Below are positions 5,922 to 9,050 of a DNA stretch of 64,000 bases, piece by piece. A program made the translations under genes and the position numbers. Origin of the DNA: Candidatus Enterousia sp. (GTDB lineage Bacteria > Pseudomonadota > Alphaproteobacteria > Rs-D84); the NCBI GenBank assembly GCA_045530935.1, contig JAZSDC010000034.1:875-64874 (forward strand), written 5' to 3'. Under the pieces are notes generated by a model. That model saw only the letters and a list, made by a program, of their open reading frames with translations. It was not told the origin of the DNA and did not search any database. How positions within the stretch are numbered: the stretch's first letter is position 1; every line of letters starts with the position of its first letter.

Positions 5922-6488
5922 TCAACAGTAAACTCGGAATAAAATTCTCCAATTTTCATCAGTTACCTTAATCGGCGTTCCATTTTGTTTATGAGATACC
6001 CAATAGTTTTCTGCGCCAATCATAAGGTAAAGATTTAGTTCGTCGTTTTCTATGATTATATTGGGGTTTGGGTTGCATCTGTTACCAATACCGAATGCCA
6101 TAACTTCATCGCCAACGTTATAACCTGCTTCGGCATTTTGACAGATAAGTACCGTGTTTACAATGGTGGGCATTTTGTTGGTGTTGACGGCAATATTTAG
6201 ATAGCTGACCTGGCTATTAACAGGTACAGATACTGTCTCTATTTTAGTCAGTGTTTTTGGCGCAAAGCGATTAAATAGATTTTCCCAAAATTCATCACTA
6301 ACATTGTTTATATCGAAATTACTGTTTTGTATATCGTCTTTTCTTGCAATTTCAAATCCGCCTAGTGTTTCGCCGTCATGAATACGCAATGTTTTTGCAT
6401 CTGTATCCATTGTTATTTCGCCTGGTAGACCTGTAAATTTATCATTATTTGCGGTTGTTCCGCGTCTTAATTGCAGTACACGTGTCAT
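5922..6488 (-). CDS. Small protein whose N-terminus matches the phage major-tropism-determinant (Mtd) / tail-fibre N-terminal domain
   Basis: MTRVLQLRRGTTANNDKFTGLPGEITMDTDAKTLRIHDGETLGGFEIARKDD parallels the Bordetella phage BPP-1 Mtd N-terminus (MSTAVQFRGGTTAQHATFTGAAREITVDTDKNTVVVHDGATAGGF...), which I recalled from memory. Confidence 0.6.
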   Translation of the reverse strand: MTRVLQLRRGTTANNDKFTGLPGEITMDTDAKTLRIHDGETLGGFEIARKDDIQNSNFDINNVSDEFWENLFNRFAPKTLTKIETVSVPVNSQVSYLNIAVNTNKMPTIVNTVLICQNAEAGYNVGDEVMAFGIGNRCNPNPNIIIENDELNLYLMIGAENYWVSHKQNGTPIKVTDENWRILFRVYC

Positions 6489-6599
6489 AACATATCCTTA
6501 TTTAAAGAGTTAAAAAAACCTGCTAAAAAAAGCAGGGAATAAAAAAGCCACCATTTCTGGTGGCTGTTATCAGCATTATAACATATTTTAAGGAAAAAA

Positions 6600-9050
6600 T
6601 CAAGCTGCATAACTGTATCCCGCCAAGTGGTTTGCAATAATTGTTGGTTTTTTCACATCGAACTTTTTTTGGGCATTTTCTGCGCTGAACCCCAGTCGAC
6701 CCCAGTTATACATCTTGCCCATATGGGTTCCGCGGCCTGTTTCCAGCAGATCCCAATACGACATCAGTTCCTTATAGTCCTCAATATGCTTGTCTTTGTG
6801 GTTTGCATCCCAGTTGGCCAGTTCGTTTTCATGCTCTGTTATCTGGTTATTTAGCTCTGTCAAGCTGGCCTTTGCATCCTTGAAACGATTGATGCGTTCT
6901 TGCTGTCTATCGTTTATATCTTTTGTCGAAGACAGTGTAGCATCCTTCAGTCCCAATTCACGCGTCAGCTGTGGGATTCTGCTGCGTGCATAGTATGCTG
7001 CTGATTGCGTGCGTCCACGCTCGGTTTGTTTTTCTTTCTTTTCTTCTTCTTTTTCTTTCAGTTCTTCTTTCTTTTCTTCAACCTGCTGGGTCAGTTCTGC
7101 CAACTTTTGTTGTTTTGTGCGTGCCTCGTGTTCTATGGCTGCATTTGGGTATGGTGTCGGTATTGCTGCCAATTCGGTTTTCAGTTTGTTTATATCACCT
7201 GTCTCCATCGACTGTATTTCATTTTTTATTGCTGTGATTTCTGCTGTCAGGTTACTAATATCTGTTCGTAATTGATTAAATGCATCAACTTTCTGTTGGG
7301 CTGCGTCCAAACGATTTTTTGCATTATCGCGGTCTGTGCGCTGTGCAGTTTCTCGTGTGCGATCTCGCTGCAGTTCTGTTTCGCGACGTGCAATAGTGCT
7401 GTCATTTATGTTCCATGTACGATCAAGGTTGTCCAACTCTGTCGTAGGTGTCACCGCTTCTGCCCTCAGATTATCCAGTGCACCTTCCTTTATCTGCTTT
7501 TCTTCGTCATCTTTTATCGCCATGGCCGCACGTTCTTCATCCAATCGTTTAGACTTACCTTTGAACTTAGTTTTATTTAGCTTATAGATATTCCCAATTG
7601 TCGCAATACCATATCCCAGCCCCTTGAAAGCGTATTTAATGGTTTTGTCCATTGCTGCTGTAACAAGCTTTACACTATCGTTTTTGTTCCAGGATAAATT
7701 TGGGTCTGAAAAGATACTGACTTCTTCTTTGCCAATGGTCTCCATAATTTTGCTGGTTGTAAAGCCGTACTTGATGACAGACAGTGTTTCTAATACTGTT
7801 TTTGCTTCTTCTTTTTTTCCTTCACGTGCTGCTTTGATAATTATTTCTTCGACCAGGCGACGCATTTTTGAGCCATCTTTCAAGGCGCCTTTATATGCTT
7901 CTGGTCTGATGTCTTTCAGTTCCTTCATCGTGCTAACAAACCACTCAAAGTGTTCAGATGCTTTTGGTGATTTGTATTTCAGCGCGTCTATAATTTCTTT
8001 TTCTTTTTTCAAGACCGCTTCCAAACCTTCTGTTGGCTTAATTTTTTCCTTGTGAATAGCATTTATAATGTCCTTTGCCTGTGGCGAGAACATTAATCTA
8101 TCTCCTGTAAACTTTACATATTTTTTAAAGACATCAGAATAGGTTTTACCAACCATGCTGGATATTTTCTTCCACGCGCTTACTTTTTCTTTGTGTTTTG
8201 GTGGAACATAGTCTTTACTGTCCGCATTGTCATATGCAACTTTTTCTTTTGCTTTTTCAAATGGCTCTTTGATTTTACTAGATGGGAACGCATCGCGGAA
8301 TTTTTTATTAGATGACAGTTCTCTTAATAAAATATCAAAATCCCCATGGGTGGAACCGCGTCCCTTAAAGGTTTCCATCTTGGCATCATTGATTTCTGGT
8401 TTTTCAAAAGCGTTTTCCAGTAATTTAAAGTCTGCCGGTTGGTTATTCAGTACTAATTTTAACAACTTTTCATCAAAATAGTATCCTGTTTCATCAGTAG
8501 CCATCGTCAAATAGCTAGCAACTTGCTTTAATTTTGATTGAAATGTGGGGTCTGTATTATATTTTCTTGATGTCAGCCCATCCAGCAAATTTTTGTACGT
8601 AAAATCATCATTCAGGATTTCTTGTTCCTTTAATTGCGTACTAAGATCATGTGTTTCTAATAATGATTTTAATTCTAATATTTTTGCACTTTCTTCTGGT
8701 GTTGCAGTTGCACTGGAAAATAATTTATTTTCTCCGAAATAATTATCCAAGACTTCAACTGCTTTCTCGTCTAGGTCGTCGCGATTATTATGCATTTCAA
8801 GAAAGGCGCGACGAAATTCTTCGTATATTTTTTTCCATTCATCATCTGTCAGGTGAAATTCGGTTCCTTTTGGATCCGGCATTGGTTTGCCTTCCAATTT
8901 ATCTTTCCACATTTTCATATTGCTGTCGCTGTGGAAATTGTCTGTTGCAGAATATTCATCATACTGCGCTCTGACCTCGGTTGGCATCTCATCAAAACGC
9001 AGCTGCATAAAATATTGCAATAAAAAATCTTTCATTGTTACGTCTGCCAT
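6600..9050 (-). CDS. Large (816 aa) coiled-coil, charged hypothetical protein with no signal peptide
   Basis: A long intact ORF that starts with ATG. It has extensive K/E-rich heptad-like stretches (KEELKEKEEEKKEKQ). Two hairpin terminators follow its stop. Confidence 0.6.
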   Translation of the reverse strand: MADVTMKDFLLQYFMQLRFDEMPTEVRAQYDEYSATDNFHSDSNMKMWKDKLEGKPMPDPKGTEFHLTDDEWKKIYEEFRRAFLEMHNNRDDLDEKAVEVLDNYFGENKLFSSATATPEESAKILELKSLLETHDLSTQLKEQEILNDDFTYKNLLDGLTSRKYNTDPTFQSKLKQVASYLTMATDETGYYFDEKLLKLVLNNQPADFKLLENAFEKPEINDAKMETFKGRGSTHGDFDILLRELSSNKKFRDAFPSSKIKEPFEKAKEKVAYDNADSKDYVPPKHKEKVSAWKKISSMVGKTYSDVFKKYVKFTGDRLMFSPQAKDIINAIHKEKIKPTEGLEAVLKKEKEIIDALKYKSPKASEHFEWFVSTMKELKDIRPEAYKGALKDGSKMRRLVEEIIIKAAREGKKEEAKTVLETLSVIKYGFTTSKIMETIGKEEVSIFSDPNLSWNKNDSVKLVTAAMDKTIKYAFKGLGYGIATIGNIYKLNKTKFKGKSKRLDEERAAMAIKDDEEKQIKEGALDNLRAEAVTPTTELDNLDRTWNINDSTIARRETELQRDRTRETAQRTDRDNAKNRLDAAQQKVDAFNQLRTDISNLTAEITAIKNEIQSMETGDINKLKTELAAIPTPYPNAAIEHEARTKQQKLAELTQQVEEKKEELKEKEEEKKEKQTERGRTQSAAYYARSRIPQLTRELGLKDATLSSTKDINDRQQERINRFKDAKASLTELNNQITEHENELANWDANHKDKHIEDYKELMSYWDLLETGRGTHMGKMYNWGRLGFSAENAQKKFDVKKPTIIANHLAGYSYAA

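Follow-up and report, generated by a model that had tools for sequence, protein, structure and literature searches.

We analyzed a window of 64,000 nucleotides of chromosomal DNA from Candidatus Enterousia sp. (assembly GCA_045530935.1, contig JAZSDC010000034.1), and find that a gene for a 188-aa protein, lying between ackA and a gene for an 816-aa protein, very probably encodes a functional, phage-derived protein of the receptor-binding type. Judged from its sequence, the 188-aa protein is a whole minimal fiber, in which a docking and trimerization module is followed by a distal tip. The gene is a stand-alone, lineage-fixed fiber-tip gene that probably belongs to a dispersed phage-derived system, and a podovirus-like gene cluster built around dnaB, which we found elsewhere in the lineage, is a candidate for the rest of that system. 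An initial annotation of the window had described the two open reading frames (ORFs) as neighbors next to ackA, and this layout holds; both are on the minus strand, and ackA comes immediately downstream (Table 1).

Both domains of the 188-aa protein are tail-fiber modules

The N-terminal peptide quoted in the initial annotation as resembling phage Mtd is present, and the corresponding Pfam domain, Mtd_N (PF18454), matches residues 6-41 over profile positions 2-37 of 37 (E 7.5e-13), with 48.6 bits against a curated cutoff of 26.3. PHROG 9648, a “tail protein” family, matches residues 1-50 (1e-10), and a profile of 40 family members aligns at E 4.8e-16 with residues 1-66 of Mtd from Bordetella phage, as found in its crystal structures (1yu4 and others). 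An AlphaFold2 (AF2) model of the monomer, with a predicted local distance difference test score (pLDDT) of 90.7, has the Mtd entries (1yu1 and related) as its only significant PDB matches (Foldseek probability 1.0), through the N terminus alone and with a template modeling (TM) score of 0.23. Full-length homologues number 195 and measure 184-228 aa, and all those listed carry PF18454.

Mtd of phage BPP-1 is a separately encoded, trimeric receptor-binding protein on the ends of the podovirus tail fibers (PMC2408619). The N-terminal ~50 residues of the 188-aa protein are homologous to those of BPP-1 Mtd (PDB 1yu0-1yu4), with 48% identity over residues 1-56. Mtd, however, has 381 aa, comprising a beta-sandwich and a C-type lectin variable domain that is diversified by a diversity-generating retroelement (DGR), whereas the C-terminal domain of the 188-aa protein comes from a different, unnamed family that does not match C-type lectins. 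Neither Pfam, which reports nothing past Mtd_N, nor Foldseek detects a C-type lectin domain in it; a blastn search with the gene shows no DGR-type template/variable repeat in the window (no second copy longer than 27 nt), and no reverse transcriptase is found among the window ORFs scanned, for which the annotation reached ~26 kb. Because the C-type lectin domain is missing from the protein and the DGR-type repeat from the window, the 188-aa protein is not an Mtd orthologue, and on the same grounds we rejected it as a DGR target like Mtd.

To characterize the remainder of the protein, we built a profile, A3, on residues 56-188. A word-index search with this profile returned proteins of the same architecture only, so that phage fibers were reached solely by an exhaustive HMMER search of 1.84 billion representative proteins, which yielded 1,207 proteins at E<=1e-3, 50 of them at <=1e-10. 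Outside the ~190-aa family, the tip domain forms the extreme C terminus of proteins of 250-1074 aa or is repeated inside them. When 74 of these carriers were scanned against family libraries, many PHROG tail-fiber families were matched, and single carriers matched Phage_T7_tail, BppL_N, Mtd_N, or Collagen in Pfam, while no Pfam model covered the tip domain itself in any of the 74. Two tip-domain carriers led to annotated tail-fiber proteins of cultured phages, namely the 685-aa fiber at the gp17 position of Rhizobium phage RHph_X3_9 (Autographiviridae; hhalign 94%, E 1.4e-7) and the 751-aa fiber of Pseudomonas phage Bitten (hhalign 96.4%, E 1e-9). The last ~90-100 residues of these fibers align to residues ~96-187 of the 188-aa protein, ending at the C terminus and sharing the motifs LxCxTAExGY..GD and TG...IT..NW. 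Both phage fibers have long shafts and other N-terminal adaptors, of the T7-tail type, whereas in the 188-aa protein the tip follows Mtd_N almost without a linker, and its gene is a chromosomal one shared throughout the lineage. A Foldseek search of predicted viral structures also returned tail-fiber proteins, with TM scores of ~0.45-0.47 over the C-terminal domain. The phage origin and adhesin-like character that the initial annotation had read from the N terminus thus rest on firmer ground than first claimed, since both domains are tail-fiber modules. Roseobacter phage CRP-3 gp30, which appeared as a full-length relative with 70% tblastn coverage, was discarded: the coverage was an over-extension, and residues 1-57 only are truly similar.

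The gene is conserved and under purifying selection across the lineage

A scan of one genome per species gave 169 stretches with relatives of the small protein, most of them with the record title “Candidatus Enterousia sp.” or “Alphaproteobacteria bacterium” and a source in ruminant, horse, bird, or human gut. Homologues of both the 188-aa and the 816-aa protein exist in hundreds of full-length copies, all from uncultured gut Alphaproteobacteria. Candidatus Enterousia belongs to the order Rs-D84, with genomes under ~1 Mb and without respiration, for which a partner-dependent lifestyle has been suggested (PMC12306168).

We compared 82 loci, 80 from the species scan and two on contigs carrying a 65%-identical homologue. 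ackA adjoins the 188-aa gene in 81 of them, with a median gap of 54 nt, the 816-aa gene lies upstream on the same strand in 78, and the block takes in a major facilitator superfamily (MFS) gene in 63 and the p225 gene in 65. The 188-aa ORF is intact at every locus examined. The ratio of nonsynonymous to synonymous substitution rates (dN/dS) was estimated pairwise by the Nei-Gojobori method for selected pairs with at least 80% identity in the 188-aa protein; the medians are 0.09 for the whole 188-aa gene (0.078 for its N-terminal and 0.112 for its C-terminal part), 0.087 for the 816-aa gene, and 0.035 for ackA. Such low values indicate that both genes encode functional proteins, neither being a decaying remnant. 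The divergence of the 188-aa protein (45-69% identity) exceeds that of ackA. The initial annotation had left a choice between a remnant and a domesticated phage adhesin; lineage-wide conservation, the low dN/dS (0.09), and the presence of its own promoter speak for the second term and against the first, and “domesticated” is the better fit for the 188-aa gene.

A podovirus-like cluster around dnaB occurs in the same lineage

A check of synteny and flanking genes in relatives revealed a podovirus-like cluster in the lineage, which adjoins the 188-aa gene in the loci L035 and L044, where the 816-aa gene is not upstream and phage genes directly precede the 188-aa gene. The initial annotation had held that a conserved core pair without phage association would speak against its proposal; the pair is indeed conserved across the lineage, but the small gene is phage-associated.

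The full cluster measures ~12 kb and runs from scaffold, HC2-like protein, capsid, p76, tail A, tail B, p115, and, in some copies, p183 to the ATPase half of the large terminase gene terL; then follow, in reversed orientation, p212, an XRE regulator, and dnaB, and after these the nuclease half of terL, the portal, a Bbp19-like protein, and a transmembrane (TM)/coiled-coil protein (Table 1). It occupies L035:316-9982 and is present in L044, L054, L063, L076, L111-L163, and L191-L194 as well. The gene order is fixed in about 60 copies, being found on ~50 IMG/VR contigs (portal identity 67-80%), four metagenome contigs, and five loci of metagenome-assembled genomes (MAGs); in the MAG loci L054, L063, and L076 the cluster lies a few kb past ackA. 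In L007, a close relative of the window, the scaffold gene lies ~5 kb past p225.

Within a metagenome collection, relatives of the cluster dnaB at 73-90% identity, sought without reference to phage genes, were inside the cluster in four cases out of four, while the next-closest dnaB genes (<=50% identity) were not accompanied by it. In every copy, the dnaB cassette splits the large terminase exactly between its two domains, and this is also the case in the divergent copy L161 (portal 58%, dnaB 59%). The cluster genes are intact, and their dN/dS values range from 0.045 (capsid) to 0.15; capsid identity among the metagenome copies is 85-93%. Housekeeping genes flank the cluster on contigs of up to 109 kb, and no integrase was seen in it. 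True podophage contigs with a portal ~45% identical carry the same structural genes with an unsplit terminase and without dnaB; among cultured phages, Pelagibacter podophages come closest (EXVC031P, portal 32% and capsid 44.6%; HTVC010P type). The embedded dnaB, the split terminase, and the lack of an integrase favor domestication of the cluster, which may be like a gene transfer agent (GTA) or may be an old temperate phage.

RcGTA and FpGTA resemble this arrangement in that a host lineage keeps phage-derived structural genes at more than one locus, with the gene for a receptor-binding protein apart from those for head and tail. The fiber and head-spike genes of RcGTA of Rhodobacter lie outside its main cluster. 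FpGTA of Faecalibacterium is a podovirus-like, GTA-like element in two loci, described only recently (PMC12946183). RcGTA is of the HK97 siphovirus type, whereas the Enterousia cluster is T7/HTVC010P-like; the Enterousia system further differs from the GTAs in its terminase split around dnaB, in a host genome under 1 Mb, and in being known from genes alone rather than from particles or random DNA packaging.

An alternative that we regard as unlikely sees in the cluster an ordinary, active temperate podophage with which the 188-aa gene has nothing to do, the gene having come from a different, older phage and serving another function now. Such a reading agrees with the viral call of the cluster in IMG/VR, with its XRE-type regulator, and with the lack of Mtd_N genes in its closest true phage relatives. 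It does not readily accommodate a terminase split by an opposite-strand dnaB cassette in all ~50 copies, the divergent L161 included, nor the finding that all four close dnaB relatives lie inside the cluster, that no integrase is seen, that long contigs show housekeeping flanks, and that Mtd_N genes recur at the right end of the cluster.

Circumstantial links connect the 188-aa gene to the cluster

The links between the 188-aa gene and the cluster are all circumstantial, the adjacency in L035 and L044 being one of them. Another comes from a second family of small Mtd_N proteins, of 167-169 aa and with a different C-terminal domain, whose genes sit on the right-hand edge of the cluster in L112, L113, L149, and L192, and, in L013-L015, beside a GH24 endolysin gene near tRNA-Lys; this paralogue may be an alternative receptor-binding protein. 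Furthermore, the cluster's own fiber gene encodes only an adaptor (~183-202 aa), and the same adaptor heads fibers of 316-867 aa in related true phages; being reduced to this adaptor stub, the cluster is without a distal receptor-binding part. Four proteins (P0338, P0369, P0375, and P0408) fuse a p183-like adaptor with the tip domain of the 188-aa protein, which constitutes a Rosetta-stone link. A precedent exists in BPP-1, where Mtd trimers, made as a separate protein, dock on the fiber ends (PMC2408619). The cluster also resembles BPP-1 in holding a Bbp19-like gene, of a family named after that phage.

The 188-aa gene has its own promoter and a terminator-like leader

On the coding strand, the promoter is followed by one or two hairpins, a ribosome-binding site, and the 188-aa gene. 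The promoter consists of a -35 box TTGATT (6603-6598), a 17-nt spacer, and a TG-extended -10 box TATAAT (6580-6575), scoring 10/12 in a consensus scan, and the strict pattern cTTGATTTTT, spacer, TGnTATAAT recurs in 77 of 83 related upstream regions. The tandem terminators that the initial annotation saw between the two genes are there, as hairpins with T-runs at 6565-6546 and 6536-6519, although its picture needs correction insofar as the conserved extended -10 promoter is upstream of the hairpins and not downstream. A hairpin occupies the same position in 78/78 related loci, with stem sequences that differ between clades, and 34 of the 78 have two. These hairpins terminate the 816-aa gene and begin about 9-15 nt past the -10 box of the 188-aa gene; since they sit downstream of its promoter, the predicted 188-aa transcript would open with a stem-loop resembling a terminator, possibly an attenuator or a 5′ stabilizer. 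As for known RNAs or riboswitches in the leader, the only Rfam match, to manA-II (6512-6632), scored 36 bits where the gathering score is 100 and was rejected as below threshold.

In one subclade (L019:5730-6500, L014, L024, L037, L039, and L070), the 816-aa and 188-aa genes have between them an inserted ORF of 256 aa that matches no family. The promoter and the hairpin stay with the 188-aa gene in this L019-type arrangement; with a terminator and a promoter between them that keep to the 188-aa gene, the two genes are separate transcription units.

The ackA promoter in the window has a -35 box TTGAAA (5925-5920) and a TG-extended -10 box TATGGT (5902-5897); its family pattern, TTGAAA, 17 nt, TGcTATGCT, is conserved in 81 of 82 loci. 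The TGA stop codon of the 816-aa gene lies within the -35 box TTGATT of the 188-aa gene, and the TGA stop codon of the 188-aa gene lies within the -35 box TTGAAA of ackA. Stop codons placed inside the -35 box of the next gene, in 77/83 and 81/82 loci, respectively, form a compact arrangement that ties the neighbors together. No consistent terminator was found between the 188-aa gene and ackA across related loci, and transcripts of the 188-aa gene would probably run on into ackA.

The 816-aa protein is a separate, lineage-specific neighbor

The initial annotation described the 816-aa protein as a coiled-coil protein without recognizable domains, and this description stands: Pfam, NCBIfam, PHROG, and PADLOC give coiled-coil noise only. 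Its 243 homologues are ~800 aa long and have no Pfam domain. The protein contains 35% charged residues, and its AF2 model (pLDDT 81) is all-alpha and in three parts, with an N-terminal region of helices that reaches about residue 440, a low-confidence stretch at 442-490, and long helices over 501-745 (501-546, 553-628, and 637-745). Residues 442-490 (window 7581-7727), SDPNLSWNKNDSVKLVTAAMDKTIKYAFKGLGYGIATIGNIYKL..., are among the most conserved of the family and have the lowest AF2 confidence (pLDDT < 50); the segment may be partner-binding or membrane-interacting.

A Foldseek search of the model against the PDB gave nothing below E 0.1, and searches of PDB sequences with the profile and with the N-terminal domain gave coiled-coil or chance matches only. 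The long helices recall the coiled-coil arms of SMC/MukB-type proteins, and the best Foldseek matches are SMC and Smc5/6 arm fragments, non-significant at E >= 0.1; unlike these, the 816-aa protein lacks the ATPase head, the hinge, and the SMC_N domain, and its N-terminal helical domain of ~440 aa is unmatched. An SMC-like identity was rejected, with no SMC_N/ABC match and 12.2 bits for TIGR02168 against a cutoff of 567, as was that of a phage internal, ejection, or tape-measure protein, with no tblastn match in 50,697 phage records. Relatives of the protein were found neither in IMG/VR, with alignment-derived patterns, nor in the cluster or the phage loci, PHROGs giving noise only, and these searches detected none outside the lineage or in phages. 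We conclude that the 816-aa protein is unrelated to the small gene, separately transcribed, lineage-specific, and, by its composition, cytoplasmic; a scaffold or cytoskeletal role, based on the coiled coil only, is a guess.

The proposal that the two genes form a module or pair does not hold up, given that the 816-aa protein showed no relatives in cultured phages or on IMG/VR contigs and that a terminator and a promoter stand between the genes. We saw no sign of the two proteins working together. Since the syntenic block also takes in the MFS and p225 genes, the adjacency of the two genes is not specific, and it is broken in several genomes.

These data bear on a further alternative, cellular exaptation, according to which the bacterium has made the phage-fiber-like protein its own, for instance as an adhesin to a partner or host cell, maybe presented by or working with the 816-aa protein in a “host-interaction pair.” The lineage-wide, syntenic (78/82) conservation of both genes under purifying selection, the usual location of the small gene away from the phage-like cluster, and the partner-dependent lifestyle proposed for Rs-D84 genomes of <1 Mb (PMC12306168) would all suit such a role. 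We nevertheless consider it unlikely, as both proteins lack a signal peptide and any hydrophobic segment (maximum KD19 0.83 and 0.65), the genes are separated by a terminator and promoter and, in one subclade, by the 256-aa ORF, L035 and L044 have no 816-aa gene upstream, and MFS and p225 share the block.

Less probable still is a phage-defense decoy or superinfection exclusion function, in which a soluble mimic of a receptor-binding protein would mask the cell's own receptor or poison the assembly of Mtd_N-type phages. A stand-alone protein of receptor-binding type with a strong promoter and a divergence above that of ackA (45-69% identity) could be expected of a decoy, but there is no PADLOC match, export signal, or nearby defense gene, and dN/dS values of 0.09-0.11 give no hint of diversifying selection in the tip domain. 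Membership of a defense system was also rejected for the neighborhood, as PADLOC matched none of the 188-aa, 816-aa, p225, and MFS proteins except for LmuB at coiled-coil level (4e-4). Finally, it is barely credible that the gene is an inert prophage remnant kept by linkage, its deletion damaging the neighbors because the ackA -35 box overlaps its stop codon and its leader holds the upstream terminator: regulatory signals do overlap both genes' ends in 77-81 of ~82 loci, and endolysin-like fragments near tRNA-Lys are phage debris in the region, but linkage would protect only the last few codons, whereas the whole ORF is intact, with dN/dS of 0.078 (N-terminal) and 0.112 (C-terminal), and keeps a near-consensus promoter and ribosome-binding site.

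Other features of the window

The true start of ackA is likely the ATG at M14, and an RNase E/G gene lies beyond ackA. In the region 11172-12620, two repeats come after a tRNA-Lys gene (11172-11247), a direct one of 126 nt (11251-11376 and 12313-12438, 94%) and one of 49 nt (11584-11632 and 12543-12591). The repeats bracket an 83-aa ORF, which is a C-terminal endolysin fragment (PG_binding_3; phrog_315, 2.9e-11), and another ORF, of 185 aa, that weakly matches GH108; at the same position, L013 carries the GH24 endolysin and the Mtd_N paralogue. The region has the look of a small island of lysis genes derived from phages. The window also encodes a class A RNase P RNA (183 bits; 31036-31370, minus strand) and a tRNA-Gly (57063-57139), ordinary housekeeping RNAs that fit a chromosomal context.

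Table 1. Coordinates and assignments of the features at the 188-aa locus, of the Mtd_N paralogue, and of the genes of the podovirus-like cluster; positions are those of the window unless a locus is given
Feature	Position	Strand	Assignment and basis
188-aa gene, mtd188	5922..6488	-	Predicted minimal phage-type fiber/receptor-binding protein; ORF, homologues, AF2, dN/dS
Mtd_N domain, residues 6-41	6366..6473	-	N-terminal trimerization/docking module, as predicted; Pfam PF18454, PDB profile, Foldseek
C-terminal beta-sandwich tip domain, residues 56-188	5925..6323	-	No Pfam family; profile A3, hhalign
816-aa gene, cc816	6600..9050	-	Lineage-specific all-alpha/coiled-coil protein, separate transcription unit
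Promoter-like element of 188-aa gene	6575..6603	-	Consensus scan and conservation in relatives
Two terminator-like hairpins with T-runs	6512..6565	-	End of 816-aa gene, within 5′ leader of predicted 188-aa transcript
ackA promoter-like element	5897..5925	-	Promoter scan; same offset in 81/82 loci
ackA (acetate kinase)	4626..5906	-	Pfam Acetate_kinase, 3e-148; directly downstream of 188-aa gene
167-169-aa Mtd_N paralogue	L149:11648-12157; L013:3881-4384		
Cluster scaffold, T7 type			Before tail genes; Pfam Phage_T7_Capsid, 2e-10
Cluster HC2-like protein			Lys/Ala-rich; before tail genes
Cluster major head protein (capsid)			Before tail genes; phrog_3437, 1.6e-72
Cluster p76			Small conserved ORF between capsid and tail A
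Cluster tail protein, 172 aa			Tail tubular A/B pair; phrog_394, 4.5e-32
Cluster tail protein, 571 aa			Tail tubular A/B pair; phrog_376, 1.5e-79
Cluster p115			Between tail proteins and p183
Cluster p183			183-aa stub of fiber N-terminal adaptor; phrog_1640, 1.6e-15; Pfam Phage_T7_tail just under cutoff
Cluster terL, ATPase half			phrog_38 positions 272-459
Cluster opposite-strand cassette			212-aa ORF, double helix-turn-helix XRE regulator, full dnaB
Cluster terL, nuclease half			phrog_38 positions 470-702
Cluster portal			phrog_332, 4.6e-71
Cluster Bbp19-like protein (p72)			Pfam Phage_Bbp19, 4.3e-9
Cluster small TM/coiled-coil protein			After Bbp19-like gene

Discussion

The domain identities, conservation, selection, synteny, and promoter and terminator anatomy reported here, like the existence and integrity of the cluster, are established directly. 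Our preferred explanation is that the 188-aa protein is the separately encoded receptor-binding tip of a podovirus-derived particle, either GTA-like or from a long-resident prophage, and we give this an even chance; that the particle it serves is that of the dnaB cluster we rate at even or slightly below. By analogy with Bordetella phage Mtd, the Mtd_N domain would make the protein a homotrimer, which would dock through Mtd_N on the short tail or the stub fiber of a podovirus-type particle. Such a particle would be built from the cluster genes, and the beta-sandwich tip would bind a surface receptor on recipient or partner cells.

Several results weigh against this explanation. No full-length relative of the 188-aa protein is present on any viral contig examined, and an Mtd_N gene is absent from the true podophages nearest to the cluster. 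The 188-aa gene is mostly not next to the cluster, which is not found in the 64-kb window, and p183, the stub on which the trimer might dock, is absent from about half of the cluster copies. Moreover, to judge from the strong, constitutive-looking promoter and the likely read-through into ackA, the gene would be expressed along with central metabolism and not along with a particle.

More broadly, and tentatively, it is possible, though we lean against it, that Rs-D84 bacteria keep a domesticated podovirus-derived particle system spread over several loci. These would be the head-tail cluster with its dnaB-split terminase, the Mtd_N tip gene by ackA, the small Mtd_N paralogues, and the endolysin genes at tRNA-Lys, and the particles would serve DNA exchange or contact with partner cells. 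Reduced genomes shed non-essential genes, yet the fiber gene, in more than 150 species-level genomes, and the head/tail set have been kept, which argues for a phage-derived machine that benefits the cell.

The tip domain is an uncatalogued tail-fiber tip domain in ~1,200 representative proteins and is useful for annotating phage receptor-binding proteins. The 816-aa orphan is set apart from the phage story and is open to study as a lineage-specific cytoskeletal or scaffold candidate. If the domesticated particle system is real, it would count as the second independent case of GTA-like domestication among Alphaproteobacteria, this one of the T7/HTVC010P type, and as the first case in a strongly reduced genome. 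A GTA-like nature of the cluster would add a podovirus-type example to the few known GTAs and would provide a route of gene exchange for an uncultured, possibly partner-dependent gut lineage.

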